Shown in pieces: positions 40,951-58,449 of a stretch of 64,000 nt of DNA. Each line of letters starts with the position of its first letter. Position 1 is the stretch's first letter. Below the pieces are notes generated by a model. That model was not told the origin of the DNA and searched no databases. It saw only the letters and a program-made list of their open reading frames with translations. The translations under genes were made by a program, and so were the position numbers. The DNA is from Opitutales bacterium (GTDB lineage Bacteria > Verrucomicrobiota > Verrucomicrobiia > Opitutales > JABSRG01), in contig JBMYOQ010000001.1 of the NCBI GenBank assembly GCA_049599475.1, positions 64,001 to 128,000 of the forward strand, in the 5' to 3' direction.

Positions 40951-41664
40951 ATGAATACATTTTTAGAAAAACCCACTCAGATGCACCTCGAAAACATCGC
41001 CTTTTACGGGCGTACTTTCGATGAATATTGTGCAATCTTCAATCTGGATCCAGCGGAGCTTGAGGGGAAGCGTATCCTCGATACCGCATCAGGTTCCGCG
41101 TCCTTCGCCGCTGAATCATTGCATCGCGGTTACGATGTGACGGCGAGCGATCCGCTCTACGACCGAAGTGCTCCGTCGCTCGGACGTATCGGATCTATGG
41201 ATATCGAGAGTGTAATAGCGAAAGCGCGCGAGGTGGAGAGTGTCTTTACCTTCAGTTATTATAAGTCGATTGATGAAGTCTACAAAGCGCGCTATAAGGC
41301 GATTCGAGGGTTTTTAGATGATTACCCGTCTGGACGAGCTCTAGGGCGTTATCAATGTGCATCTCTCCCGGACCTGCCCTTTAGCGATAACGCATTCGAT
41401 ATTGTATTGAATGGACACTTTTTATTCCTTTATGCCGAGCGGTTAGGAGACGCGTTTGTGTTTAACGCAGTGAGCGAGTTACTGCGCGTTTCCAGCCGAT
41501 CGGTATACCTTTACCCACTGATCCAGCTAAATGGTCAAAAGTATCCACGGCTGGATGAGCTCGTTAAAAAAGTCGAAAACAACGGTGTTACTGCTGAGTT
41601 TAGGTCTTTGGAGTTTGAGTTTTTTAAGGGAGCAGACACGTGCTTGATATTAAACCAACCATGA
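40951..41664 (+). CDS. Class I SAM-dependent methyltransferase
   Basis: ILDTASGSASF (motif I), VTASD, LPFSDNAFDIVL, ELLRV. Confidence 0.82.
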   Translation: MNTFLEKPTQMHLENIAFYGRTFDEYCAIFNLDPAELEGKRILDTASGSASFAAESLHRGYDVTASDPLYDRSAPSLGRIGSMDIESVIAKAREVESVFTFSYYKSIDEVYKARYKAIRGFLDDYPSGRALGRYQCASLPDLPFSDNAFDIVLNGHFLFLYAERLGDAFVFNAVSELLRVSSRSVYLYPLIQLNGQKYPRLDELVKKVENNGVTAEFRSLEFEFFKGADTCLILNQP

Positions 41665-43079
41665 AACGTATCGTAATCCTCGTTTTCGAAAAAGCTGAGC
41701 TGCTTGATTTTTGCGGCCCATTCGAGATCATATCGACGCTTGAGACCGAGGATCTTGAGCCTGTGGAAGTGGTGCTCTGGAATCCGCTGGAGTCTCGGGA
41801 AATAAAGTCGGCAAACGGTGCCAGCGTGATTGCCGATGAGATCGGTGAGCTCGCTGAAGACTCTATTGACTTGCTTGTTGTTCCGGGAGGAGAGGGCTCG
41901 CGTACTTTTTTGCGCAATAGTCTAGCAATGGGGCGGCTCAGTGTCGCCTTTGGTCTAAGTGAACGCGTGTTGAGTGTCTGCACCGGTGCTCGTATTTTGG
42001 CCGCTGCGGGAGTGCTCAAAGGCTTGTGTGCGACGACTCACTCCAGTGCGCAAGTGGACCTCGCGGAAAATTATCCCGAAGTGATCTGGGATTTTTCAAA
42101 GCGGTTTCACGATAATGGAAAGTGGATTATTTCCGCAGGAGTTGCTTCAGGAATTGATGCTGCCTTGTATTGGTTGGGAAATACATTTGGCGAGAGCCGT
42201 CGGCGAGATGTCGCGCAGGCGGTAGAGGTTCCTCTTGTGGGGAATATGGCGATCTTCGGCGGCTTGGCCTATCAGATTGTCGATGCTTTCTGTACAGATA
42301 AGTCCTTTTCGGGGAACCCGGCTGCTGTGTGTATCTTAGACGAATCGCTTCCCGATAGCATTTTACAGAAGATCGCTATGCAGCATAATCTCAGCGAGAC
42401 GGCTTATCTGAACTTTCTGGAGATACGTGAAGATTCGCCGGTATATGAACTGCGCTGGTTTACGCCGGAGGTAGAAGTTGATCTGTGCGGTCACGCAACA
42501 TTGGCATCGGCTTCCGTTGTTTTTGATCTCAACGCGGCTTGGGAGCAGGTGATCTTTGTGACACGCAGTGGAGAGCTCCTTGTGAAAAAAGGTGCGGAGG
42601 GCTTAGAAATGGATTTTCCAAAGCTAAAATACGAGGCGGCAACCGAGGCTGATCTACTTGGAGTGGGTCTGCCAGGCGAAGTCGTAGAGGTCCAAACGGG
42701 TATGGATTTGGCGGTGGTCGTGAACGAAGCTCAAGCTTTGATGGATTGGTCGCCTAATCTCTCGGCGGTCGAAAAGTTGCCGTATCGAGGATTGATCGTT
42801 ACAGCCAAGTATTCAGAGAATGGGTACGATTTTGTATCACGGTTTTTTGCTCCACAATCAGGTGTTCCCGAAGATCCGTTTACGGGGTCAGCCCACTGCT
42901 GGCTAGCTCCTTACTGGTGTGATCAGCTTGGCAAGGGAACGGTCACAGGATTACAGGCATCCAAACGTCAGGGCCGCGCAGTCTGTTCTGTGGTAGGTGA
43001 TCGCGTTTTATTGTCAGGTGCGGCTTCCTTATATTCGACCGGTTATATAGCGGTCGAGCGCCTGGTCGAAGACGAGTAG
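41661..43079 (+). CDS. DJ-1/PfpI domain fused to a PhzF-family isomerase
   Basis: N-terminal ELLD, VVPGG, SVCTGA, SAGVASGID; C-terminal DAF..GNPAAV, SETA, EVDLCGHATLA, EDPFTGSAH; single frame. Confidence 0.85.
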   Translation: MKRIVILVFEKAELLDFCGPFEIISTLETEDLEPVEVVLWNPLESREIKSANGASVIADEIGELAEDSIDLLVVPGGEGSRTFLRNSLAMGRLSVAFGLSERVLSVCTGARILAAAGVLKGLCATTHSSAQVDLAENYPEVIWDFSKRFHDNGKWIISAGVASGIDAALYWLGNTFGESRRRDVAQAVEVPLVGNMAIFGGLAYQIVDAFCTDKSFSGNPAAVCILDESLPDSILQKIAMQHNLSETAYLNFLEIREDSPVYELRWFTPEVEVDLCGHATLASASVVFDLNAAWEQVIFVTRSGELLVKKGAEGLEMDFPKLKYEAATEADLLGVGLPGEVVEVQTGMDLAVVVNEAQALMDWSPNLSAVEKLPYRGLIVTAKYSENGYDFVSRFFAPQSGVPEDPFTGSAHCWLAPYWCDQLGKGTVTGLQASKRQGRAVCSVVGDRVLLSGAASLYSTGYIAVERLVEDE

Positions 43080-44867: not shown

Positions 44868-45425
44868 ATGAAAAAGACTGCCTTAGCCTTCACCCTAGTC
44901 GCCGCCGTTCTTACTGGCGCTCAAATCGCTTCTGCTCAGGAAGCTCCTCAAATCAAGAAAAGCCCCGATGCATCCTTCACACAGACCGTGGGGCTGACCG
45001 AGATCACTGTAAAATATAACCGGCCCAGCGCGCGCGGTCGCGAGATTTTTGGCGGTTTGGTTCCTTACGACAAGGTGTGGCGCACGGGGGCTAACCAATC
45101 TACAGACATCACCTTCAGTGCACCCGTTATGTTTGGCGGCGAGTATGTCGAAGCAGGCACCTATGGCCTTTACACGATTCCTGGAAAGGACGGATGGAAG
45201 GCGATTCTTTACAGCGATGCAGATCTCTGGGGGACGGGTCGCGACTATGATGCTTCCAAGGAAGTCGTCCGAGTGGATGCTGCAGTTTTTGAGCTTTCGC
45301 CAGCGTTGGAGACCTTTGCAATCGGAGTAAATGCCATCACAGACACCTCTGCGATCCTGCATTTTGACTGGGTAAACACTCGGGCAGGTGTAGAAATTCG
45401 TGTAGGTGAAGCCGTAATGAAGTAG
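44868..45425 (+). CDS. DUF2911-like exported protein
   Basis: Signal peptide; YNRPSARGREIFGGLVPYDKVWRTGAN, GTYGLYTIP. Confidence 0.85.
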   Translation: MKKTALAFTLVAAVLTGAQIASAQEAPQIKKSPDASFTQTVGLTEITVKYNRPSARGREIFGGLVPYDKVWRTGANQSTDITFSAPVMFGGEYVEAGTYGLYTIPGKDGWKAILYSDADLWGTGRDYDASKEVVRVDAAVFELSPALETFAIGVNAITDTSAILHFDWVNTRAGVEIRVGEAVMK

Positions 45426-45471
45426 ACTTTCTTTGGAACCCCTGGCAGGTGTCAGGGGTTTCGTCATGTAC

Positions 45472-47931
45472 ATGGCCCGCATTATCTCCGCAATCTTGTT
45501 TGCATCCTCAATGGCTGCTTACGCAAATGTCTCTCCTAAAACGGTAGGAGAGATTCAGCACGGTATTCAGAAATTGGGTACCCTCGCGAGTGTCTTGTAT
45601 GTCGCTGCGCATCCCGACGATGAGAACACGCGGCTCATTGCTTACATGGCGAATGAGGCGAAAGCCGAGACGACATACTTATCTCTCACTCGGGGCGATG
45701 GCGGCCAGAATTTGTTGGGCGATGATCTGGGGCACAAACTCGGCGTAGCCCGTACTCATGAGCTCTTGGAAGCCAGGAAAATTGATGGGGGTAAGCAATT
45801 TTTCTCTCGTGCTAATGACTTCGGCTATTCCAAATCTGCAGTCGAATCTATCGAGATCTGGGGTAAGGACCAGGTGATGGCCGATACGGTGTGGGCGATC
45901 AGAGTGTTGCGCCCAGACATTATTATTAACCGATTTTCTACCGAGCCGGGGTTCACTCATGGGCACCACACTGCTTCGGCTCAGCTCGCCGTTGAAGCCT
46001 TTGAACTAGCTGCAGACCCAGAGCAATTTCCAGAACAGTTGAAGTGGGTCGAGCCGTGGCAGGCGAAGCGCATTGTCTGGAATACGTCCACTTGGTTTTA
46101 CCGGAGGCGCGGGCTCGACTTCGACCCGCGTTCGATGGTCTCTGTCGATACCGGAGTGTATAATCCTACTTTGGGAATGGCTTATTCTGAGATAGCCGCC
46201 CTGAGTCGCAGTGCGCACAAGACCCAGGGTTTCGGCGCAACCCCGCGCTTGGGCGAATCCAAAGAATATTTTGAGCACATTCGTGGACCCCAAGCGGAAA
46301 GTGATCTCTTTGACGGGGTTGATACGTCTTGGACCCGACTCGAGGGCGGTGAAGGTGTTGGAAAAATGGTGGCTAAGCTTCAGTCATCTTTCGACTCCAC
46401 GCGACCGGAGGCCAGTGTAGGAGAGTTGTTGAGCATTTATAGGGCGATTGGTGAACTCCCTGATGGATTTTGGAAGGAAAAGAAAATGGCTGAGGTGCGG
46501 GACTTAATCTTCGCGTGCATAGGTCTGGATGTCGAATGGCTGAGTTCCGAGAAAGAAGGTACGCCTGGCAGTCAAGTGCGAGGCGAGGTCTTGGCTGTCC
46601 AGCGGTCCTCATTTGACGTCAAGATTCAGGGGTCTTCTACAGGTGATGCGAAATCGATGCGTAAGAATGTGCTCGTCAAACTTCCGCTTCCAGTGACTGT
46701 TTCAGAGGACGCTCCTGTTTCTCAGCCTTACTGGCTGCGCAAGCCCGGGACCCTCGGGGCCTATGTCGTGGACGATCAAGAATGGATCGGAATGCCTGAA
46801 GGCCTGTCGCCCCTGGCAACTCCAGTCACGGTGACGGTAGCCGGTGAAGCCCTTACCATTATTCTGGAGCCTGAATTTAAATACAATGATCCGGTAGACG
46901 GGGAAGTGAAGGAGCGTTTTCAAATCACTCCTCCGGCGACGTTGAATTTGGATGAGCGCTTGCACATCGTGAGCTCCCCTGAACCCATCAGTGTCGGCGC
47001 CACTCTGCAGGTACGTGAGGATACTGCTCAAGGTGCTTTAGAGTTTAAGGCGAATGATGGTTGGACTGTGTCGCCGGAACGCGTGGAGTTTGAAGGGAAG
47101 CAAGGCGAAGAGATTCGTATTGAAACCGAGTGGGTCCCCTCGGGTGAACCGGGTCAAAGTAGTTTGCTCGGTAGTGTCCTTCTGGATGGAGAGACGATTG
47201 ATGTCGGCTATGAGCGCATGGAATATGACCATATTCCGGTCCAGACATTCTTCCCCAAAGCAGAAGCGAAGGGTATCCTTCTCGATGTCGAAAAGCGTGG
47301 GGAGCGTATTGGGTATATTGAAGGGGCTGGCGATGCCGTGCCTCAGGCTTTGGAGCGAATAGGGTATCAAGTAGATATGCTCACCGAAGCGGATCTCAGC
47401 TCTGATGTCTTGGAGCAGTATGATGCGGTTGTTCTCGGTATTCGTGCACTCAATACAATTGATCGTATCGGGTTTATGATGCCAACCTTGTTTGATTACG
47501 CGAAAGCTGGAGGGGTGTTGATACTTCAGTATAACACAGGGCACCGCTTGAAGACTACGGACTACTCGCCCTTCAGATTGAACATCTCGCGTGATCGCGT
47601 AACGGATGAATTTGCGGCCGTGGAGATCTTGGAGCCTGAACACCGGGTGTTAAATTACCCAAATAAAATAGGCGCCGCTGATTTTGAAAACTGGGTGCAA
47701 GAGCGTGGGCTGTATTTCCCGAATGCATGGGGTAAAGAATTTACTCCAATTTTTTCTATTGCGGATCCTGATGAATCGCCGAGTGAGGGTAGCCTTCTAA
47801 TAGCCAAATATGGCAAGGGATTTTATGTCTACAGTGGACTATCATGGTTTCGTCAGTTGCCGGCTGGCGTGCCCGGAGCGTATCGTATCTTTGCAAATAT
47901 CGTATCTTTAGGTAAGGCAGTAAATGAGTGA
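45472..47931 (+). CDS. Large exported PIG-L/LmbE-family Zn hydrolase
   Basis: Signal peptide; AHPDDE, TRGDGGQN, DFGYSK, HGHH; C-terminal GATase-like domain (YDAVVLGIRA, WVQERGLYF). Confidence 0.88.
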   Translation: MARIISAILFASSMAAYANVSPKTVGEIQHGIQKLGTLASVLYVAAHPDDENTRLIAYMANEAKAETTYLSLTRGDGGQNLLGDDLGHKLGVARTHELLEARKIDGGKQFFSRANDFGYSKSAVESIEIWGKDQVMADTVWAIRVLRPDIIINRFSTEPGFTHGHHTASAQLAVEAFELAADPEQFPEQLKWVEPWQAKRIVWNTSTWFYRRRGLDFDPRSMVSVDTGVYNPTLGMAYSEIAALSRSAHKTQGFGATPRLGESKEYFEHIRGPQAESDLFDGVDTSWTRLEGGEGVGKMVAKLQSSFDSTRPEASVGELLSIYRAIGELPDGFWKEKKMAEVRDLIFACIGLDVEWLSSEKEGTPGSQVRGEVLAVQRSSFDVKIQGSSTGDAKSMRKNVLVKLPLPVTVSEDAPVSQPYWLRKPGTLGAYVVDDQEWIGMPEGLSPLATPVTVTVAGEALTIILEPEFKYNDPVDGEVKERFQITPPATLNLDERLHIVSSPEPISVGATLQVREDTAQGALEFKANDGWTVSPERVEFEGKQGEEIRIETEWVPSGEPGQSSLLGSVLLDGETIDVGYERMEYDHIPVQTFFPKAEAKGILLDVEKRGERIGYIEGAGDAVPQALERIGYQVDMLTEADLSSDVLEQYDAVVLGIRALNTIDRIGFMMPTLFDYAKAGGVLILQYNTGHRLKTTDYSPFRLNISRDRVTDEFAAVEILEPEHRVLNYPNKIGAADFENWVQERGLYFPNAWGKEFTPIFSIADPDESPSEGSLLIAKYGKGFYVYSGLSWFRQLPAGVPGAYRIFANIVSLGKAVNE

Positions 47932-48034
47932 TTCCAAAAATCCAATTCCATGGGGAATGATTTATAGCGCGGTGCTGGCATGGCTCGTCGTTGTGATTGT
48001 GCTCATGTATGTGTTCTCGAAGGTGTTTTCATGA
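47924..48034 (+). CDS. Small membrane protein, 36 aa (MSDSKNPIPWGMIYSAVLAWLVVVIVLMYVFSKVFS)
   Basis: Translated by hand; one TM helix; overlaps the upstream stop and has an ATGA overlap with the symporter. Confidence 0.75.
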   Translation: MSDSKNPIPWGMIYSAVLAWLVVVIVLMYVFSKVFS

Positions 48035-49716
48035 GTGTCGTGGATTGGATTGTCCTCGTGGGGACTGTGTTGGGGATTGTCTTATACGGCGTCTGGGTCG
48101 GACAGCGTAATCGGAATTTAAATACTTATTTGCGCGGTGGTGACGGGCTGAAGTGGGGGACGATTGGCCTCTCGGTGATGGCCACACAGGCCTCCGCCAT
48201 CACCTTTTTATCTACACCAGGACAAGGCTATGAGAATGGACTGGCCTTTGTGCAAAATTATCTGGGGCTGCCCATTGCTCTGGTGATTATTTGTCTCTTT
48301 TTTATCCCGCTCTATTATAAGCTGAATGTTTCCACGGCCTACGAGCTGTTAGGGCAGCGGTTCGACCAGAAAACACGGCTTCTTGGGGCAGGTTTGTTTC
48401 TCGTGCAACGAGGGTTTGCCGCAGGGATCACCATTTATGCGCCAGCCATTATTGTTTCCACGCTCTTTGGCTGGGGGCTAAATATGACCATCGTAATCAC
48501 GGGTGTGCTGGTGATTTTATACACGGTCTCAGGAGGGACGCGTACAGTAAGTCTCACTCAGAAATACCAGATGCTCGTGATACTGATAGGGATGACGATT
48601 GCCTTTGGGTATGTTATCGCAGGTTTGCCACAAAACATTTCTCTAGGAGATGCCCTCTACTTAGCAGGCGTCCAAGGCCGACTCGAAGCAGTCAGTTTTT
48701 CCTTTGATCCGGAAGAGCGTTATACGATTTGGACGGGTCTTCTCGGTGGAACCTTTTTGGCGCTTTCTTACTTCGGTACGGATCAATCGCAGGTTCAGCG
48801 ATACTTGGCGGGCGGTTCGTCTGTGGCAAGCCGCCTGGGGCTGATGTTCAATGCTGTATTGAAGATTCCGATGCAGTTCGCCATTTTGCTCTTGGGTGCT
48901 CTTCTGTTCGTATTCTATCAGTTTGCGGGCTCACCGGTGTTTTTCAACGAAACTGCTCTCGATGGTATTCCTGAAGAGCGTTTGGTGGAAATTCAGAATG
49001 AGTATGATGCAAACCAGGAAACTCGGATACCTCTCTTGCACGATGTGCTGGAAGAGCGAAAGACCTTGGGTGAGCCTACTGACGAAACCTTGGGATATCT
49101 CGCGAGTGTCAATGACAAGTTGGATTCGAGCCGCGAGGAAATACGCGAGGAGATAAAACAGGTAGATGCTAAGGCGGACACGGAAGATGCTGATTATGTC
49201 TTTCTTACATTCGTGCTTAACAATCTTCCTGTGGGGCTGGTCGGCTTGCTCGTGGCAGTGATTTTCCTTGCTGCGATGTCCTCGACGGCGTCTGAGCTAA
49301 ATGCTTTGGCTTCTACAACAATGGTCGACGGCTATCGTGCTCTAATCCGAAAGAACGAGAGTGAGACGCACTACGTGTGGGTGGCGCGGGCTTTGACGCT
49401 TTTCTGGGGGGTGTTGGCTGTGGGGTTTGCCATGACTTTGACGCTCTTCGACAATCTCATTGAAGCAGTGAACATCATCGGTTCATTGTTTTACGGAGCG
49501 ATCCTGGGGCTCTTTTTGATCGCATTCTTCATACGCTGGGTTGGCGGAAGTGCCGCATTCTGGGGTGGCGTTCTTGCAGAATGTATCGTGCTCGGGCTGT
49601 ATTTCTCTGAGGTGGATATCGGCTACCTATGGTTTAATATGATTGGCTGCGGGATTACAGTTGTCCTAGCCATGGGTTTTCAGACCTTATTTTTCAAAAG
49701 TCCTCAGGAGGCCTAA
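48031..49716 (+). CDS. Sodium:solute symporter (SSS/SLC5)
   Basis: SVMATQASAITF, TAYELLGQRF, GTDQSQVQRYL, AAMSS; many TM helices. Confidence 0.93.
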   Translation: MSVVDWIVLVGTVLGIVLYGVWVGQRNRNLNTYLRGGDGLKWGTIGLSVMATQASAITFLSTPGQGYENGLAFVQNYLGLPIALVIICLFFIPLYYKLNVSTAYELLGQRFDQKTRLLGAGLFLVQRGFAAGITIYAPAIIVSTLFGWGLNMTIVITGVLVILYTVSGGTRTVSLTQKYQMLVILIGMTIAFGYVIAGLPQNISLGDALYLAGVQGRLEAVSFSFDPEERYTIWTGLLGGTFLALSYFGTDQSQVQRYLAGGSSVASRLGLMFNAVLKIPMQFAILLLGALLFVFYQFAGSPVFFNETALDGIPEERLVEIQNEYDANQETRIPLLHDVLEERKTLGEPTDETLGYLASVNDKLDSSREEIREEIKQVDAKADTEDADYVFLTFVLNNLPVGLVGLLVAVIFLAAMSSTASELNALASTTMVDGYRALIRKNESETHYVWVARALTLFWGVLAVGFAMTLTLFDNLIEAVNIIGSLFYGAILGLFLIAFFIRWVGGSAAFWGGVLAECIVLGLYFSEVDIGYLWFNMIGCGITVVLAMGFQTLFFKSPQEA

Positions 49717-49719
49717 GGA

Positions 49720-50493
49720 ATGTCAGAACCGGTAATATGTTTTGGTCAGCAACCCTGTGGATTTTTTCCCCGGCGCTTCTTGTGGTCCAAGATTTTGACT
49801 GCCCGGCGTCTTCAATCGGAAATTGGTGGGCGCATTGTATTTTTCTACCATGACAGCGATCACGATCCGCGAGAGACTCAGACATTTGTCTGTAATAAGG
49901 ATTCAGGCGCTGAACAGTGTCTCAATTTTACCTTCAAGAATAAGATCCAGAAAAAATATACGCCACTCTATGCTAAGGAACTCGTGGATGGATGGCAGCG
50001 TGATATGGCGCGACAGATGCCCAAGTTTGCCTCGGATACATGCATACAGTGGTTCCGAGATATTGACGCTACCAACATAGCGGATTTTTGCTTAGAGATG
50101 TATGAATCGATGGGTATCTTGGACGGGGTGGACGTGGTGAGGTCGAGCGATCCGGAATTCCGTGAATCGGCCTGCACTGTGGATGATTACTTCGTCGATA
50201 CCGAGTATGAAGGCGAGTGGGTGCGTGCGCGTCTCGCGGAGGCTGGGGCACTGCAGTTGCACCGCGGCGGTGGAAAATTTATCGAACTGAGTGGGCGCTC
50301 GTGGACTGCCGAACATATCAGTCCCACTCGGGATACGCGTCTTTTATGGATGCAGTCGGTGATCCAGTGCACCCATTACATCGCGGGAGCTGGCGAGCTC
50401 CAGTATTTGAATATGGACGAAGCGCCTGAAATAGAGTTTGTTACCCGTGATCCCATTGAAAATGCCTCGGCGGCATACATCCCCGAATCATGA
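49720..50493 (+). CDS. Short BshC-like protein (putative bacillithiol cysteine-adding enzyme)
   Basis: GQQ, FFYHDSDHD and YIAGAGELQY parallel the BshC motifs GQQ, FW...EDHD and Y.GGPGE..Y; coupled to bshB-bshA. Confidence 0.65.
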   Translation: MSEPVICFGQQPCGFFPRRFLWSKILTARRLQSEIGGRIVFFYHDSDHDPRETQTFVCNKDSGAEQCLNFTFKNKIQKKYTPLYAKELVDGWQRDMARQMPKFASDTCIQWFRDIDATNIADFCLEMYESMGILDGVDVVRSSDPEFRESACTVDDYFVDTEYEGEWVRARLAEAGALQLHRGGGKFIELSGRSWTAEHISPTRDTRLLWMQSVIQCTHYIAGAGELQYLNMDEAPEIEFVTRDPIENASAAYIPES

Positions 50494-51206
50494 GTGAGCC
50501 CAAGACCATCCTTGCTGTTGGCGCGCACCCGGACGACTTAGAGTTTGGCTGCGGTGGCATCCTGTTGAAGTCGGTTGGGGGCGGAGCACGCGTGCATTGC
50601 GTCGTCACTTCGCTTGGAGAGTCTGGCTCCGCTGGGACTCCGGAGCTTCGGAAGGTCGAAGCCCAGGAGGCCGCTCAGATGCTTGGACATGCGTCGGGCC
50701 CGCAGTTTTTGGACTTTGGCGGAGACGGCATGCAAATAGCCAGTAAAGAGAATGTGCTAAAAATCGCGCGTATCATTCGGGAGGTGAAACCGACCCATGT
50801 GTTGGCGCCGACAGTCGTGAAAAATCAACATCCCGACCATGTCGTAGTGGGTGAGGCTGTGCGAGAAGCCTGCCGCCTGGCGCGCTACGGTGGATTGGCA
50901 GTCTTGAAAGATCTCCCAGTTCACCGTGTCGAAGTGTTGGGGTATTACACCATTACTTCATCTGAAGAGCGCCCATCTGGCACGCGGATGTGTATTGATG
51001 TCAGCGAAGTTTTTGATGACTGGCAGAAACTGATGGCCTGCCATCAAACGCAGGTGTCTGCTCGGGGGTATATTGAATTGATCAATGCGCGGGCTCGCCA
51101 ATTGGGCATGGCTGCGGGAGCAGAGTATGCGCAGGAGATTTATCTCAACGATCCTCCGCTAGTAGAAGGTTTCGAAACAATCGAGCGTACTTTGCGTTCG
51201 TTTTAG
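50490..51206 (+). CDS. bshB: PIG-L family deacetylase, BshB-like
   Basis: LAVGAHPDDLEFG, GT..LR..EA, HPDH; adjacent to bshA. Confidence 0.8.
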   Translation: MSEPKTILAVGAHPDDLEFGCGGILLKSVGGGARVHCVVTSLGESGSAGTPELRKVEAQEAAQMLGHASGPQFLDFGGDGMQIASKENVLKIARIIREVKPTHVLAPTVVKNQHPDHVVVGEAVREACRLARYGGLAVLKDLPVHRVEVLGYYTITSSEERPSGTRMCIDVSEVFDDWQKLMACHQTQVSARGYIELINARARQLGMAAGAEYAQEIYLNDPPLVEGFETIERTLRSF

Positions 51207-51209
51207 AGT

Positions 51210-52349
51210 ATGGGTCGGAGCTTGAAAATTGGGGTCGTCTGCTATCCGAGTATCGGAGGTAGTGGTATATTGGCTACGCATCTCGGGTTGCTTTGTGCCA
51301 AGGAAGGGCACGAGGTACATTTTATCTCCTACGAGAAACCGGTGAGGCTCGATGTCGATCACCCCAATATTCATTTTCACTTGGTATCTGTTTCTGAGTA
51401 TTCACTTTTTAAATACTCCGACTACACATTGCCCTTATCTGTTAAAATAGCGGATATCTCTGAAGAGCATGATCTAGATGTTTTACACGTGCACTATGCG
51501 GTTCCCCATGCGACAGCAGCTCTGCTAGCGCGCCAAATGCGCCCGCATACACAACGTCCAGCTATTGTCACGACCTTGCATGGCACGGACACGACTCTCT
51601 TGGGTAAGGATCCGCACTATATGCCCATCATTAAATTTTCGATGGAGCAATCGGATGGGGTGACTACTGTTTCTCAAAGCCTCAAGCAGCAGACTATCGA
51701 TACTTTTGATGTGAAGCATCCGATTGAGGTAATTTATAATTTCTATGATCCAGCGCCTCCCGTTCGGTCTCGAGAAGAGGTGCGTGCTGATTTGGGAGTT
51801 GCTGAGTCAGAATTGATGCTCTTGCACATGTCGAACCTTCGGCCGGTGAAGCGTTTCGAGGATATTCTGCAAGCGTTTGCTTTGGTCGATAGTAGCTTGA
51901 ATTCTAAGCTGGTTGTAGCTGCAGGCGCTGACTCGCGATCGTTCAAAGCCGAAGCCGAGAGGTTGGGCGTTGGAGATCGGGTGATTTTTCGAGAGCATGT
52001 TGTAGCGATCAACGATTATCTGAATGCATGTGATATTGGAGTATATGCTTCTGAGCAGGAAAGCTTTGGATTAAGCATTTTGGAGACGATGTGCTATGGC
52101 CATCCGGTAGTCGCGACGCGAGCCGGGGGCATCCCCGAGGTTGTCGAAGATGGGGCGAGTGGGATTTTGGTCGAAATAGGCGATGTAAATGCTCTGTCGG
52201 CTGCAATGACTCGATTGATCCAAGATGCGGAGCTCAGAGCGTGCTATGGTGAACGCGGTGCGGCCGTGGCGGCATCCAAGTTTTCAGGAGCTCCGGTGAG
52301 GGATCAGTATTTAAAACTCTATTACGAAATGGTGGCGGCTTGTGAATAG
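51210..52349 (+). CDS. bshA: N-acetyl-alpha-D-glucosaminyl L-malate synthase (GT4)
   Basis: KIGVVCYPSIGGSG, LHVHYAVPHA, TTLHGTD, SNLRPVKR, ESFGL. Confidence 0.92.
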   Translation: MGRSLKIGVVCYPSIGGSGILATHLGLLCAKEGHEVHFISYEKPVRLDVDHPNIHFHLVSVSEYSLFKYSDYTLPLSVKIADISEEHDLDVLHVHYAVPHATAALLARQMRPHTQRPAIVTTLHGTDTTLLGKDPHYMPIIKFSMEQSDGVTTVSQSLKQQTIDTFDVKHPIEVIYNFYDPAPPVRSREEVRADLGVAESELMLLHMSNLRPVKRFEDILQAFALVDSSLNSKLVVAAGADSRSFKAEAERLGVGDRVIFREHVVAINDYLNACDIGVYASEQESFGLSILETMCYGHPVVATRAGGIPEVVEDGASGILVEIGDVNALSAAMTRLIQDAELRACYGERGAAVAASKFSGAPVRDQYLKLYYEMVAACE

Positions 52350-53199
52350 GAATCGGCTTTGGTTGTGCATTTTTTGTTGTTTGGTGGCCTGTTTAGGCGC
52401 TTTTGCTGATGCTGGGGATCAAGCATCTGAGAGCGAGGCTGCCTTGGAAAATGCTTACGACACTTTTAGAAAAGCGTCTTTAGCACGGAGAGTGTATCCT
52501 GTGCGGGCCTTAGCAAGGGCTGCTAGAGAAGCAGGGGATGCCGAGGCCTTGGAACAATATACGGAGCTCGAAGTTTCAGAGTATGCGCAACATCGGGCGG
52601 AGCTTACGGATTTTGCATTGTCAGTGCTGAAGGATACAACTGCCTTGGCTGTGAGCGCGAGTCGTTGGAGTGATTATCGATTGGATGATCTGGCGGCAGC
52701 TGTTCAGGCATTCCAGGCGAAGTTTCCTGAACATGAAGATCTGCCCGTACTACTGGATAAAATTGAGAGCTTGAAACGTGTTCGGGTAGGGGCGACTGCC
52801 CCGGCAATCACGGGCAATTCCCCGAGCGGGGAAACTTTGAGCTTGGCCGAATTTAAAGGGAAATACGTTTTGCTCGATTTTTGGGCCGGATGGTGCCCGC
52901 CATGTCGCGTAGAAAACGCCAACTATGTTGAGCTGTATTCAGAATATGGAGGCGATGAGTTTGAGATTTTAGCGATTTCACAGGACCGCCGTCCAGACCA
53001 GTGGAAGCGTGCAATTGCTCAGGATAAGGCGACATGGAAGCACATTTCCGATGTGAAAGGGATGGATAGTTCTCAGGCGAAGGCCTATGCGGTGACCGCT
53101 CTTCCTGCGAGTTTCCTGATCGATCCAGACGGGATAATCATCGCCAAAGATTTGCGTGGCGATGCTTTGGCCGAAAAATTGGCCGAAGTCCTTAAGTGA
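52342..53199 (+). CDS. Exported TlpA/ResA-like thiol-disulfide oxidoreductase
   Basis: Signal peptide; LLDFWAGWCPPC, ALPASFLIDPDG. Confidence 0.9.
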   Translation: MNRNRLWLCIFCCLVACLGAFADAGDQASESEAALENAYDTFRKASLARRVYPVRALARAAREAGDAEALEQYTELEVSEYAQHRAELTDFALSVLKDTTALAVSASRWSDYRLDDLAAAVQAFQAKFPEHEDLPVLLDKIESLKRVRVGATAPAITGNSPSGETLSLAEFKGKYVLLDFWAGWCPPCRVENANYVELYSEYGGDEFEILAISQDRRPDQWKRAIAQDKATWKHISDVKGMDSSQAKAYAVTALPASFLIDPDGIIIAKDLRGDALAEKLAEVLK

Positions 53200-53206
53200 T
53201 CTCCAT

Positions 53207-54106
53207 CTACACCATCTCTTGCAGAATCTGAGGCATTCTGCTGAGTGTGTGTTTTAGGGAGGCGATCGAAAGTTTGGACTCAGTATTGTCGGAGCCGAAA
53301 AGAATTTTCCAGGATGCTAGGCGCGTCCAGCGCTCCTCGGGGACCGGAGTCGTTTTTTCGATGTCGGTGATTCCGGTTGAGCGTAACAAAATGTCGGAGA
53401 TGTGGACTGCGGCCGCAGTCTTGGCGTAGTTGGGGGCGCGTGACGGTGTATTGTGGTAGCGCACGGCTTCGACGATTTCGTCGGCAAGGTTGTGCTTCTG
53501 TAGATAATACGCTCCGACCATAGCATGGTCCCAGCCGCCCAGAAGTTCACGTTCCCGTTTGCAGAATGCGATCGCCGATTCAGCCTCATAATCAATGAGT
53601 TGCTCGAACTCGTAGGGAAAGACGTAAGCCATGACGATTTTGCCCACGTTGTGGACGAGGCCAACGATGTAGTCGGTATCGTCCTCGTAGATCGTGTTGG
53701 TTAGCGAAAGAATCTCGCGGGTAAGTATGGCTGTACCGATACTATGCTGCCAGAGGTTGTCCCAGGATACGCCACTGAATTTTTCATTCAGTTTGTTGAG
53801 CTCCTCAATGACGGGTGTGGCTAGGGTAAGCTCCCGGATTTGGCGTAGTCCGAGATAAAATACAGCTTCCTCAATATTATTTACCTTACGATTTAGCCCA
53901 TAGAAAACTGAGTTTACCAGCTTGAGCAGGCGTGAGGTGAGGGAAGGGTCGCGCCGAATGACCTCAGAGATCTGCGAAGTCACAGAGTCTTCCGCGTTCA
54001 TCAATTCATTGAGCGCCTCGTTAATACTGCTCAGGGACGCAAGGCGGGGACAATTGCCGATTTTGGCAATTATATCCGCGTTAGTCCATTGTTTGACGGC
54101 GCTCAA
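53207..54106 (-). CDS. HDOD-domain signal protein
   Basis: DPSLTSRLLKLVNS, LWQHS, GLVHNVGK, DHAMVG. Confidence 0.88.
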   Translation of the reverse strand: MSAVKQWTNADIIAKIGNCPRLASLSSINEALNELMNAEDSVTSQISEVIRRDPSLTSRLLKLVNSVFYGLNRKVNNIEEAVFYLGLRQIRELTLATPVIEELNKLNEKFSGVSWDNLWQHSIGTAILTREILSLTNTIYEDDTDYIVGLVHNVGKIVMAYVFPYEFEQLIDYEAESAIAFCKRERELLGGWDHAMVGAYYLQKHNLADEIVEAVRYHNTPSRAPNYAKTAAAVHISDILLRSTGITDIEKTTPVPEERWTRLASWKILFGSDNTESKLSIASLKHTLSRMPQILQEMV

Positions 54107-54197
54107 GGCAGGTATTGTTTATAAAGTGAAGCAGCCGAGATCGCTGCCGACGAATCGGGACGCGCTCTCGGCTGCTGTGCAAATGGTAAGGTCTGTG

Positions 54198-55328
54198 TTA
54201 AGCAGAAACAGGTGCGGTCTTGGCTTCTTCGACTGAACTGAAAATCGACCAATCTTTGGATTCTGCGTAGCTTTTGCAGTCTTCAATGAGTTTGTCATTT
54301 CCAGCAATCGTGAGGCTGAGACCGAGGTCTTTGCTCATGTCGTGGGCGGTGATGAGCAGCTTAAGCGCGGACGTATCCAGCTTTGACATCTTGGTTCCAT
54401 CGATCACGACTTTGTTGAGTCCTGCATCTACGGCCGAGGATATCTGTGGCTTGAGATAGCCCGAAATTTCGTTTTGAACATTCGGAGTCAAGTTCTCCGG
54501 TAGATGGATAATGAAGAAGCTTCCATCGTGTTTAAAGTATTTGCCCGAGGTATCGAGGTTGATGGCTTTCGCCAGCTTGTTGTCGAGGTCCTCAAAGTCG
54601 ATTGGCTTGGTAACGATTGCTGAGAAACCGTTTTGCGTCGCCTGTTGCTGTAGATGAGTTTCGCTCTTCACTGCGAGGCCAAAAATCGGGATGTATTTGG
54701 TCTTCATATTGGAGCGCAATATGCGGAACAGTGTAAACGCTGCTTCTTCAGGAAGGCTCAGACTGATCATGATGGCGTCTGGCTTTTTGTTTTGGCAATA
54801 ATCTATGGCCTCTCCAGTTGAGTTGACTCCAGCGACTTGCCAATTTGGTCCATTTAGACCTGATGAGATTTGGTCAATAATAGCTGGCTTGTCGTCCACC
54901 ACTAGGATGAAACACGCGTCGTTGATGCTCTTCTGGCGGCTCTGTTTTTCTTCCTTCGGGCGAAGGTCGATAACGCGGCCTGCTTTCTCGATGAGAGCCT
55001 CCTCTTTGAAAGGCTTTACGACATAATCGCGGATACCGATCTTTGCGATTTTCATGACGTTCTCACGGCCCGCTTCTGCAGTGAGCATGATCACAGGAAT
55101 GCCCTTGAGGTCCGGATCCGATTTCAGCTTGGTGAGCATTTCTACGCCATCCATGACCGGCATGGTAACGTCGAGTAAAATTAGATCAGGCTTCTCCTTT
55201 GCGGCGGCAGCAAGGCCTTCGACTCCGTTACTCCCTTCAACAATATCGACATCAAAGGTTTTGAAGGCCTTCTTAACAATCATACGGACGGCTTTGGAGT
55301 CGTCCACTGTTAGAATTTTGAGTCCCAT
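54198..55328 (-). CDS. Response regulator (REC, degenerate REC, STAS-like)
   Basis: VDDS..LLDVTMP..KPF; second REC without the Asp (IMISLSLP); C-terminal VVIDG...LDTSAL. Confidence 0.82.
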   Translation of the reverse strand: MGLKILTVDDSKAVRMIVKKAFKTFDVDIVEGSNGVEGLAAAAKEKPDLILLDVTMPVMDGVEMLTKLKSDPDLKGIPVIMLTAEAGRENVMKIAKIGIRDYVVKPFKEEALIEKAGRVIDLRPKEEKQSRQKSINDACFILVVDDKPAIIDQISSGLNGPNWQVAGVNSTGEAIDYCQNKKPDAIMISLSLPEEAAFTLFRILRSNMKTKYIPIFGLAVKSETHLQQQATQNGFSAIVTKPIDFEDLDNKLAKAINLDTSGKYFKHDGSFFIIHLPENLTPNVQNEISGYLKPQISSAVDAGLNKVVIDGTKMSKLDTSALKLLITAHDMSKDLGLSLTIAGNDKLIEDCKSYAESKDWSIFSSVEEAKTAPVSA

Positions 55329-55340
55329 TATAGTCTCTCC

Positions 55341-55880
55341 TTATTTATCAGCAGGTTTCATCAAAAGGTCGCAAGTGAGCACATCGCCCATTGCTTTAAA
55401 TTGGAAAACGCGTCGCATGACCTCTGAGGTCGTTTCGACGCTGAATTGAGATCCCCTTAAAATCGAAGGGATCGTGAGGCGACAGTTGTATCCTATGTCG
55501 CAAAGTCCGTTTTTGAATGTGCCAGCGATCATGTTGGCCATTTCGCCGAGGGCGTCATTTACAGTGCTGTCGGGCTCTTCGTCGAGCTCGTCTGGTTCCA
55601 TTCCTAAGAAGTTACATGTGACGTCGCGGGCTAGGCTATCGTGCATGTATAGGTAAAGCACGCCGTTTAGGCTCCCGATGAAGCCGACCATACTGACGAC
55701 CGCTGAGTCGCTAGTCACCGGGGCTTCCCTGCCTTCGCCCTCTCCATTTGTGGGTTTTACCATCCAAGATTCTTGGTAGCTGATGTGGCAGCCCGGCAGC
55801 ATCGTCTCGAAAAATTTGTCAACAGCACCCTGGACCATAGTGTCCAGTGTTTCAGGTGAAAAGGGTATCAGTGTATCCAT
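55341..55880 (-). CDS. cheX: CheX-family phosphatase
   Basis: DALGEMANMIAG (ExxN motif), LTIPSILRG. Confidence 0.85.
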   Translation of the reverse strand: MDTLIPFSPETLDTMVQGAVDKFFETMLPGCHISYQESWMVKPTNGEGEGREAPVTSDSAVVSMVGFIGSLNGVLYLYMHDSLARDVTCNFLGMEPDELDEEPDSTVNDALGEMANMIAGTFKNGLCDIGYNCRLTIPSILRGSQFSVETTSEVMRRVFQFKAMGDVLTCDLLMKPADK

Positions 55881-56006
55881 GATGTCGTGTGTGAAGTTAG
55901 CCAGTCTGCCTGGGGTTTCGGCGACTTGATGTGCCCCGTTGTTTGAGTGTAATTCGTCTCAGGTAGGGGTGTTCTTGATCGATAATTATAAGTTATTTGC
56001 GTTATT

Positions 56007-56867
56007 TCACAGCTCTGGAGCTGCTACCTTCCTATTAGGAATTAAAGATCCTTTCACCTCTTGGACGATGTCGTGTGCTTCAAGGATCAGTTCTTGCATC
56101 TCTAGATCATCGAATTCGAAGAACTTTAATGCGTCTTGTGAGCCGAAAATGGCCCAGGCATCGCGCCCATAGTTAAGACCGATGTTTGCGATTACGAAGT
56201 TTGCCAGGTAGATGAGATGGGCCATACTCTCGTGAGATTCGGCTTTCTCCGGGAAATACTGATGTGTCACCGGGAGAGTGATATCTTCGGGGAAGCTCCA
56301 GCTCTCTAGAAGGGTGCCTGCGAGCATGGCATGATTGAATCCAAGGATCGCTTCTTCGGCTTCTATCAAAGTCATATCTCGCTTGCTCTGCATATCGAAG
56401 ACTTGCTCGTAAGTGCCTTGGATTTTTTCGTTTATGACGAGTTTGCCCATGGAATGTAGGAGACCGACGGTGTATGCGGTATCTGCTTCTTCATCGAGGC
56501 GTTTTGCGAGGCTCTCCATGACGAGACCGGTAGCCACTGAGTTTTCCCAGAGTTCGCCGTCGTCGATGCTGAAATGCTCTACAGGTTTGTTTAAAGATTC
56601 TTTGCCACAGATGGTCGCGACTATCTTGTAGACTTCGCGTTGGCCGAGTCTGTTTACGGCTGCCTCAAGGCTTCCGGTGGTGAGTCCGTAGTAGCCTGAG
56701 TTACAAATTTTCAGCACCTGAGCCGAGAGTGAGGCATCGAGCTTGATGAGCGCGATTACGTCATCGAGGGTGGCGTTATCGTCTCTCAAGAGATCCATCA
56801 ACTGTGGAAGGATCTGGAGTGCTGGGGAAATCGAATCGATATCCTTGATTAGATCTTCGATTTTCAT
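56007..56867 (-). CDS. HDOD-domain signal protein
   Basis: DASLSAQVLKICNS, AVNRLG, GLLHSMGK, LESWSFP. Confidence 0.88.
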   Translation of the reverse strand: MKIEDLIKDIDSISPALQILPQLMDLLRDDNATLDDVIALIKLDASLSAQVLKICNSGYYGLTTGSLEAAVNRLGQREVYKIVATICGKESLNKPVEHFSIDDGELWENSVATGLVMESLAKRLDEEADTAYTVGLLHSMGKLVINEKIQGTYEQVFDMQSKRDMTLIEAEEAILGFNHAMLAGTLLESWSFPEDITLPVTHQYFPEKAESHESMAHLIYLANFVIANIGLNYGRDAWAIFGSQDALKFFEFDDLEMQELILEAHDIVQEVKGSLIPNRKVAAPEL

Positions 56868-57385
56868 AACAGGCTGTATTTCTTTGATTGGTTTGGCATC
56901 TTCAATTTTACGGTTCCGTCTTTCATTGACAGATGCACAGTGCGGTTGTTGAGACCGCCAACGTTTTCGGCTTGGATCTTGAGGCCCAATTTATCCAAAT
57001 AATTTCGGATAGCATCCTCATTGCGTGCGCCAATTTTGAAGAAGTCGCTTTTCTGGATTACCGAGGCCCCTCCCGCGATCATGATTTTGAGTGAGGGTAA
57101 CTTGGCTCCGAGTCCTTCGAGCTCGCTGAAGAAATATTTGCATCCGGTGTCGCAAAACATCGAGGGGCGACCGCGTGCCTTCTCGGAGGAAAGGGACGAA
57201 TCCGGCAGCATAAAGTGGAGGATCCCGCCAACATACGTGGAGGGGTCGAATGCGATCACGCCGATGCATGATCCTAAAGCGTAGGTACTAATAATTTGGC
57301 TTCTATTATTAGAAGCTGCCATATCGCCGACGCCTACGACGATATGTTCAGTAAATATTCCGACTAGTGATGGAGCGCCTGACAC
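56864..57385 (-). CDS. cheD: Chemoreceptor glutamine deamidase
   Basis: LGSCIG, HFMLP, AGGA, IGARN, VGG...RT. Confidence 0.92.
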   Translation of the reverse strand: MSGAPSLVGIFTEHIVVGVGDMAASNNRSQIISTYALGSCIGVIAFDPSTYVGGILHFMLPDSSLSSEKARGRPSMFCDTGCKYFFSELEGLGAKLPSLKIMIAGGASVIQKSDFFKIGARNEDAIRNYLDKLGLKIQAENVGGLNNRTVHLSMKDGTVKLKMPNQSKKYSLL

Positions 57386-57465
57386 GTTTGTCTGAAAGTT
57401 TGGGTTAAAATCTGTGGTTTAGGAGGGCCGGGCTTTCGCGGAGGAGAGTTTGGTTTTGAAAGAAA

Positions 57466-57936
57466 TTATAGGCCCGATACTGCGGGAGTCGGGCGGTTTA
57501 GGTGCTCCTGGATTTGTTGGAGCAGTTGGACTTTCTGATAAATCGGAGCGTCTTGAGCGATCTGCATCGATTTTCCTTCTAAGTCTGTAATTTTAAAAGA
57601 TTGTTGGCCGGAAGGGTCGGTGTGAGGTGTGATGGTCCACTCTCCGCTGGAGAGGGGTGCGCGTTCTCCATTGAGTCCCTTTTGGTCCTGAAGAATCTCA
57701 AGTTTGAGGTTTTGAGATATTTCCAGAAGCTGGCTGTCGTTGATTTTAGGGTTCAGCTCGAAAATTTCTTGGATGCTTTTGGCGTCTTTTATCCCCTGTT
57801 CATTCAGAATTTCTGAGAATGGGGTGACTTTCTGATTGGGGTCTGCCTTGGCCGCTGGTTGTGGTTGCGCAGTGGCTTCGCCGAGAATGGAGCGTCCGGC
57901 GCTTACGAGAATATTTGCGATTAGGCCATGCATCAT
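57466..57936 (-). CDS. Hypothetical protein
   Basis: 156-aa ORF that fills the gap between cheW and cheD on the same strand; no motif recognised. Confidence 0.6.
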   Translation of the reverse strand: MMHGLIANILVSAGRSILGEATAQPQPAAKADPNQKVTPFSEILNEQGIKDAKSIQEIFELNPKINDSQLLEISQNLKLEILQDQKGLNGERAPLSSGEWTITPHTDPSGQQSFKITDLEGKSMQIAQDAPIYQKVQLLQQIQEHLNRPTPAVSGL

Positions 57937-57948
57937 AATCTTGGGGAG

Positions 57949-58449
57949 TTAGAAGCTCTCCTCTACGACCACCTTATCGATATCTAGGAGAGAGATTAGA
58001 TTGCCCTTGGTCTTGGCTAGGCCGATGACGTGGGCAGTTGTTTGCGAGTTTCCGACGCTTGGATCGGATTCAAAATCGTCTTCTTGGATGCGCATCACTT
58101 CGTCCACCGCATCTACAATGAGTCCGGCAGTGGATTCCTGGCGTTCATGATCTTCAACCATGACCACGACGATGCAGGTGCGCTCGTCGAATGTGTCCTC
58201 GCCGATTGCAAACTTGAGACGCATGTCGATGACAGGAATTACCTTTCCGCGAAGGTTCATTATGCCCTTAACGTATTCTGGGCGATGGGGCACGGGGGTG
58301 ATCGGTTGCATCCGAATGATCTCGCGGATGTGATTCACTGAGATCCCATACATCTCGGCTCCGAGGTGGAAACTCAGGTATTTTCCCGGTTGAAAGGTTT
58401 TGGTGGTCGGTGTCTGTGAAACAGAGGGATCTTCGAGCGTAGCTGACAT
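57949..58449 (-). CDS. cheW: Chemotaxis coupling protein
   Basis: ITPVP..PEYVKGIMNLRGKVIPVIDMR, GLIVDAVDEV. Confidence 0.93.
   Translation of the reverse strand: MSATLEDPSVSQTPTTKTFQPGKYLSFHLGAEMYGISVNHIREIIRMQPITPVPHRPEYVKGIMNLRGKVIPVIDMRLKFAIGEDTFDERTCIVVVMVEDHERQESTAGLIVDAVDEVMRIQEDDFESDPSVGNSQTTAHVIGLAKTKGNLISLLDIDKVVVEESF

Follow-up and report, generated by a model that had tools for sequence, protein, structure and literature searches.

A putative half-length BshC encoded beside bshA in Verrucomicrobiota

An Opitutales bacterium of the phylum Verrucomicrobiota encodes, directly upstream of bshB and bshA, a 257-aa protein that, on the evidence of a predicted model and of profile-profile comparison, shares homology and fold with BshC. 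The preferred reading, to which a probability of roughly 60% is assigned, is that this compact and independently maintained BshC adds activated cysteine to GlcN-malate in the last step of bacillithiol (BSH) synthesis. The gene was found in a stretch of 64,000 nucleotides, referred to below as the window.

One source describes the BshC reaction as not reconstituted in vitro and the cysteine donor as unknown as of 2018 (PMC5790435); no later paper resolving the reaction was found in the literature searched, and no description of a short BshC was found in the titles and abstract beginnings searched, which included few subscription papers. Hiras et al. 2018 present the Verrucomicrobia as lacking a documented or predicted low-molecular-weight thiol (PMC6282198), and a 2025 survey, which required similar length and 80% coverage, did not find the BSH pathway complete in Verrucomicrobiota (PMC12719100). 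From a compact BshC beside bshA one would expect a bacillithiol-type compound in these bacteria, whose phylum is regarded as lacking one. Moreover, with a natural form of 257 aa, some dozen residues are left as catalytic candidates, the BshC reaction can be studied on a smaller enzyme, and it can be tested directly whether the coiled coil, the dimer, and the second nucleotide pocket matter; if the product is not BSH, that product would be a new metabolite.

Gene row, family, and distribution

The row begins with a DUF2911 gene and proceeds through genes for an exported PIG-L hydrolase, a small membrane protein (36 aa), and a symporter to the compact BshC gene, bshB, and bshA, as follows:

44868..45425, + strand: DUF2911 protein, hydrophobic leader at the N-terminus, opening the row (PF11138, E 4e-50)
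45433..47931, + strand: large exported PIG-L/LmbE-type hydrolase, ~820-830 aa (PF02585)
47924..48034, + strand: membrane protein of 36 aa with a single helix, its gene lying between the large PIG-L and symporter genes
48031..49716, + strand: sodium:solute symporter (PF00474 and TIGR00813 over cut-off; synteny)
49720..50493, + strand: compact BshC homologue, 257 aa (family, model, profile-profile, and residue evidence)
50490..51206, + strand: BshB1-like PIG-L deacetylase, 238 aa (PF02585, E 5.5e-24; TIGR04001 the best family)
51210..52349, + strand: BshA, GlcNAc-malate synthase, 379 aa (TIGR03999, 416 bits against a cut-off of 273.7)

The compact ORF at 49720-50493 (+) contains no internal stops, in agreement with a preliminary description that had called it intact. 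Its start lies 3 nt past the stop of the symporter ORF (called start 47980, likely start 48031), with an AGGAGG shortly before it, and its TGA stop and the bshB start ATG overlap in the ATGA at 50490-50493. The translational coupling to bshB claimed in the same description may well follow from this overlap, but the bshB link is not general: the best 80 of 486 confirmed genome loci, to which all counts of 80 loci refer, comprise 48 with the order compact-bshB-bshA, 24 in which the compact gene leads straight into bshA, 6 that reach a contig end, and 2 arranged otherwise. For the deacetylase gene, BshB1 (TIGR04001) is the top-scoring family at 137.9 bits, under its cut-off of 182.5, and the BshA product matches PDB 3MBO and 5D00 with E about 1e-93.

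Upstream, the symporter gene directly precedes the compact gene in 69 of the best 80 of 486 loci, and a DUF2911 gene is present in 57 of them; an ORF similar to the small hydrophobic 36-aa protein was seen in 53 of 57 loci examined, and 50 of 53 homologues of the large PIG-L hydrolase have a signal-peptide-like stretch. No other widely recurring gene, conserved cytoplasmic ones included, was found in the best 80 loci. Downstream, a gene for a TlpA/ResA-like thioredoxin with a hydrophobic leader (window 52342-53199) overlaps the end of bshA; it lies beside bshA in one of the best 80 related loci (L001) and is therefore probably a local addition. Farther out, a single ORF (window 41640-43079) joins what we take, by eye, to be a DJ-1/PfpI-like domain to a PhzF-like epimerase domain, and the minus strand at 53207-58449 presumably holds a chemotaxis-like signalling cluster with two HDOD-type proteins, the first of them confirmed by Pfam, and response regulator, CheX-, CheD-, and CheW-like genes.

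A protein search with 7699 candidates returned 6828 relatives of the compact protein, the best 120 of which are 232-268 aa long, have no Pfam domain precomputed, and bear names, if any, of hypothetical or uncharacterized proteins. In 80/80 of the best loci the ORF spans ~240-268 aa (median 256) with 0 internal stops, and the divergence of these loci from the window gene amounts to 0.33/0.24/0.65 at codon positions 1/2/3, a pattern whose most variable third positions point to purifying selection on the compact gene. The concern raised at the outset that relatives might carry a full-length gene, of which this ORF would be a decayed remnant, is answered by the same short gene in all of these best 80 loci, and the ~250-aa family conserved beside bshA that had been anticipated does exist, 73 of the best 80 loci also containing bshA. 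Longer homologues number 11 among 8000 candidates and are joins to neighbouring genes, none with the BshC Pfam domain; six were read by eye and five of these look like frameshift read-throughs. The sixth, P0123 (495 aa, a single sequence on a short contig), is an apparently intact fusion of compact BshC to BshB. In 150 of the 257 representative hits, mostly fragments, none has the canonical BshC length.

The genome that contains the window (96.6% complete, searched as 15340 six-frame segments) gave one significant match to a profile of the canonical BshC core, the compact ORF itself (E 7.1e-5), and nothing significant to profiles made from the segments it has lost, namely the N-terminal, coiled-coil, and C-terminal ones (best E 0.033). 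No remains of the rest of bshC lie beside the compact gene in the window or in the best 80 of 486 loci, PF24850 was found in 0/5 genomes, and the compact family had no match in plasmids. Because the missing pieces were not found elsewhere in this 96.6% complete genome, the compact BshC is not considered a fragment. Searches of the same genome with PF10079 and TIGR03998 did not report the compact ORF; their weak matches (E 0.07 and E 0.3, respectively) lie elsewhere, in ORFs 932 and 488 aa long, and were dismissed as noise.

Carriers of the compact form include, by record labels, Ca. Udaeobacter, Opitutaceae, and Ca. Obscuribacterales, and in a quick tree, in which divergent members have long branches, rows from Melainabacteria and Planctomycetota fall together with Verrucomicrobiota in a supported set. 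Among 301 Verrucomicrobiota genomes at least 90% complete, BshA scores over the cut-off in 22, of which 20 have the compact form, 2 full-length BshC, none both, and none neither (one weak, stop-containing hit, in G247, was dropped), and in a second lineage, the order of G302 (Ca. Obscuribacterales), the compact form occurs in 20 of 46 genomes, BshA in 19 of 46, each of them also a compact carrier, and full-length BshC in 0 of 46; the sampled genomes are kin, and these co-occurrence counts are not independent trials. The compact protein replaces BshC one-for-one beside bshA. Glutathione synthetase scored over its cut-off in 0/5 compact genomes tested.

The two genomes with full-length BshC carry a methyltransferase-bshC-bshB-bshA row (L083:672-4007, L084:723-3823), in which the methyltransferase, a candidate NmbA, suggests N-methyl-bacillithiol in a group for which the 2025 survey reports the pathway as nowhere complete. 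At L098:4992-6553 (and also in L097), a divergent compact BshC with 43% identity overlaps a BshB2/MshB-like PIG-L gene, and no bshA lies within about 5 kb on either side of the L098 member. At L014:6001-6756, a compact gene follows the full upstream module, and the 6 kb downstream of it contain neither bshB nor bshA.

Homology to BshC and the residues retained

Curated models score the compact ORF below their thresholds or miss it: PF10079 reaches 15.6 bits (cut-off 27) and TIGR03998 gives no match, PF10079 touches 30 of 82 compact members at E up to 1 (best 0.0011), and sequence searches of the PDB returned a best E of 0.73 by phmmer and 0 hits by profile. The link between compact and canonical BshC is revealed by fold and profile-profile comparison only. 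Specifically, the AlphaFold model of the compact protein (pLDDT 95.5) has B. subtilis BshC (4WBD) as its top Foldseek match (E 1.1e-10), and in a wide structural search 241 of its 257 residues align with BshC residues 82-512 of 4WBD (Z 20.3, rmsd 2.7 Å). When the profiles of 82 compact and 112 canonical sequences are compared, the probability is 95.8% (E 8.3e-9, 224 columns); hhalign with other settings gives 84% for the family and 0.2% for a reversed-alignment control. In a language-model search, BshC-domain clusters rank directly after the compact family's own clusters. A profile or structural match to BshC had been set beforehand as the test of the proposal, and matches of both kinds were found. 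The Atlas also holds ~250-aa clusters with PF10079 and an automatic BshC name, which may be fragments or other compact forms.

With canonical residues numbered after the L083 protein, 19 residues are invariant in the canonical alignment, and 10 of them are identical in the compact family, where they fall in three ungapped blocks and are invariant in 82/82 sequences: G92, Q93, Q94, K107, D136, and E141 correspond to compact G9, Q10, Q11, K24, D47, and E52, and R324, G340, E343, and Y346 to compact R207, G223, E226, and Y229. Canonical R367 probably corresponds to compact R243, at the same position past the last strand, W131 is changed to F42, and the register of R284 is uncertain in the compact alignment; G100, P101, and P333 are replaced, and no sequence counterpart of P481, Q486, or R488 was found in the compact family. 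The motifs G9-Q10-Q11, D47-H48-D49, and Y220-IAGAG-E226 do stand in BshC order, as first noticed. The candidate active site, as read from the alignment, comprises G9, Q10, Q11, K24, D47, H48, D49, E52, R207, G223, E226, Y229, and probably R243.

The family has also diverged in ways of its own. The loop joining strand 1 to helix 1 reads PRRF or PKRF in 81/82 compact sequences against the canonical GPLY, the QER motif is present in 0/82 compact against 112/112 canonical sequences, the loop GQQPCG is found in 82/82, and C7, R19, H44, C124, H181, R204, W210, and H219 are invariants particular to the compact family. HIGH-like and KMSKS-like motifs are absent from the 82 compact and the 112 canonical sequences alike.

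Canonical BshC is about twice as long, as had been pointed out (the 4WBD chain has 541 aa), and the difference is spread along the chain: median values are 9 residues before GQQ in the compact form against 91 in the canonical one, 175 against 217 in the middle spacing, and 35 against 189 past G-x2-E. As described in reviews, the BshC dimer forms through the coiled coil, and 4WBD has its ADP in a second, non-canonical pocket (PMC5790435, PMC4360819). Compared with canonical BshC, the secondary structure of the compact form lacks the N-terminal helical domain, the internal helix pair, and the coiled coil; the N-terminal ~85 aa, the helix pair, the coiled coil, and the C-terminal end are separate losses, and in the predicted model the compact tail occupies the place of the post-coiled-coil segment of BshC. 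The non-canonical pocket of 4WBD presumably consists largely of residues past the Rossmann core, mostly missing from the compact form. The idea of a minimal Rossmann core is thus right as to the halved size and the retained core, but the protein is not a plain truncation and keeps the connecting insertions. The residues that align with class I LysRS number 287 in the canonical model (range 7-324) and 210 in the compact one (range 19-294), and this larger alignment of the canonical form hints that parts were lost on the compact side. A full-length ancestor, reduced by such losses, is the most likely origin of the compact form.

Proposed reaction, redox partners, and rival explanations

In the proposed pathway, BshA would couple UDP-GlcNAc and malate, the deacetylase would convert the product to GlcN-malate, and the compact BshC would put cysteine on the free amine of GlcN-malate, the coiled coil, the N-terminal domain, and the QER segment being dispensable for the chemistry. 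The cysteine would be pre-activated, most likely as Cys-tRNA(Cys) rather than by MshC-style adenylation, because the protein has the fold of the catalytic domain in class I aminoacyl-tRNA synthetases but HIGH and KMSKS are missing, as in the tRNA-dependent cyclodipeptide synthases; within the BshC explanation, the odds that Cys-tRNA(Cys) would be the donor are roughly even. Taken overall, the proteins of the compact family are not basic (median pI 6.6), a property that lends tRNA binding no support. Moreover, six canonical invariants (G100, P101, P333, P481, Q486, R488) without an identical counterpart speak against a simple BshC reading.

YpdA, the BSH disulfide reductase family, scores over its cut-off in 2/2 full-length-BshC genomes and in 0/20 compact genomes with the best 7 candidates per genome scored, and in 0/5 genomes in which all candidates were scored; in the second lineage it is likewise over the cut-off in 0/46. 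Full-length YpdA-like genes below the cut-off exist in two compact-form genomes (309 and 274 bits), and BrxA/B and BrxC were not found in 5/5 compact genomes. The BSH transferase family NF009807 is absent from 42/42 genomes, both full-length-BshC genomes included, and is therefore uninformative. The YpdA-like match in the genome of the window lies below the cut-off in the N-terminal part of a 764-aa fusion (L085:223-2517, G000:C11) of YpdA-like flavoprotein and NapH-type ferredoxin domains, and was rejected as YpdA. Matches of similar length occur in G294, G180, G070, and G238, full-length-BshC genomes among them, and the fusion is a candidate alternative reductase.

As YpdA is over its cut-off in 0/20 compact genomes, a different product is possible. 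The same scaffold might place a non-cysteine acyl group on GlcN-malate or a related BshA product, or yield a thiol variant that YpdA does not recycle, and the exported hydrolase and the symporter would then handle the compound outside the cell. YpdA goes with full-length BshC rather than with the compact form, bacilliredoxins are found in 0/5 genomes, the strand 1-helix 1 loop and QER, which do not vary among 112 canonical sequences, are altered or missing, and the compact family has invariant residues of its own, all of which agree with such a product. Still, the core polar residues are common to the compact form and BshC, BshA exceeds the equivalog cut-off in 20/20 compact genomes, and reductase families are often swapped, so that this explanation, the best placed of the rivals, is held to be unlikely.

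The exported hydrolase bears on the same question. Of the 301 genomes, the large PIG-L protein is encoded in 21 of the 22 with BshA and in 0 of the other 279; it also occurs with full-length BshC (G238), therefore belongs to the pathway in general, and is no marker of a different product. The module formed by the DUF2911 gene, the hydrolase, the 36-aa protein, and the symporter (44868-49716) could plausibly serve the recovery of the thiol's sugar core from outside the cell.

A compact gene leading straight into bshA was seen at L031, L035, L049, L057, L076, and 19 similar loci (G306-G310), of Chthoniobacterales/Udaeobacter type. A BshB1-like gene scored over the cut-off in 0/5 genomes whose locus lacks bshB (completeness not given), and in 3 of these 5 the exported hydrolase is the sole PIG-L protein found. 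A joint reading would have the compact enzyme make a new GlcN-malate-based metabolite, either a non-cysteine amide or a YpdA-free thiol, by aminoacyl-tRNA-dependent transfer, with the amino sugar of bshB-less soil Chthoniobacterales supplied from the periplasm through the exported hydrolase and the sodium symporter; taken as a whole, periplasmic part included, it appears quite doubtful.

The preferred reading, a compact BshC that transfers cysteine by itself, has also to be weighed against a part-catalyst whose separately encoded partner supplies the lost elements or activates cysteine. Reviews describe BshC active sites as open and possibly in need of another protein or cofactor (PMC5790435, PMC4360819), and the one apparently intact fusion to BshB (P0123) would fit a partnership. 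However, neither the lost-segment profiles (best E 0.033) nor PF24850 (0/5 genomes) points to such a partner, no further conserved cytoplasmic gene recurs in the best 80 of 486 loci, and CysRS motif matches in the genome of the window amount to one; a partner is accordingly very improbable. Lastly, a decayed or split bshC fragment or a non-catalytic leftover, in line with scores under every curated BshC cut-off, is scarcely credible and appears largely refuted by conservation, given 6828 members, reading frames of ~256 aa that are free of stops in all of the best 80 of 486 loci and apparently under purifying selection, a confidently predicted compact fold, no other bshC remains adjoining or elsewhere, and 0/11 longer homologues with the BshC Pfam domain.

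Comparison with known systems

Cyclodipeptide synthases are class I aaRS derivatives that have lost HIGH and use aminoacyl-tRNA substrates (PMC2922099). Members of the AlbC family resemble the compact BshC as small HUP enzymes derived from class I aaRSs, a mechanistic analogy only; their GxSxxp serine signature is missing from the compact form (GQQPCG), their gene context differs, and the best 50 fold matches of the compact model, led by BshC and aminoacyl-tRNA synthetases, include no CDPS structure.

MshC, the mycothiol cysteine ligase, works with ATP via Cys-AMP and has HIGH, KMSKS, and Zn (PMC9736012). Its step, cysteine onto an amino sugar, is analogous to the one predicted for the compact form, and the superfamily fold is the same; in contrast, MshC (3C8Z) is a much weaker structural match (Z 7.6 in the wide structural search), and its HIGH and KMSKS are missing from the compact form.

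Class I LysRS (1IRX) was the runner-up in that search, with Z 14.6 for the compact model and Z 21.8 for the full-length one. A likeness to LysRS special to the compact form was rejected, as the canonical BshC control matches too and the likeness is family-wide. The compact TH-x-x-x-G strand resembles the GluRS motif of its own genome, a further trait shared with class I aaRSs; unlike LysRS, to which it is 11% identical, the compact form has no HIGH, KMSKS, or anticodon-binding domain.

The closest counterpart is BshC (YllA) of B. subtilis (4WBD; family models TIGR03998 and PF10079 plus PF24850), with which the compact form shares the HUP/Rossmann fold with connecting insertions, the series GQQ, K, DHD-x2-E, R, and G-x2-E-x2-Y, the lack of HIGH and KMSKS, and the company of bshA and usually bshB. 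It differs from BshC in its half length, in having no coiled coil, PRRF for GPLY, and no QER, in scoring below all HMM cut-offs, and in occurring without YpdA in the sampled genomes. The compact form is thus outside BshC by HMM score, coiled coil, and two motifs, and BshC-like in fold, residues, and context.
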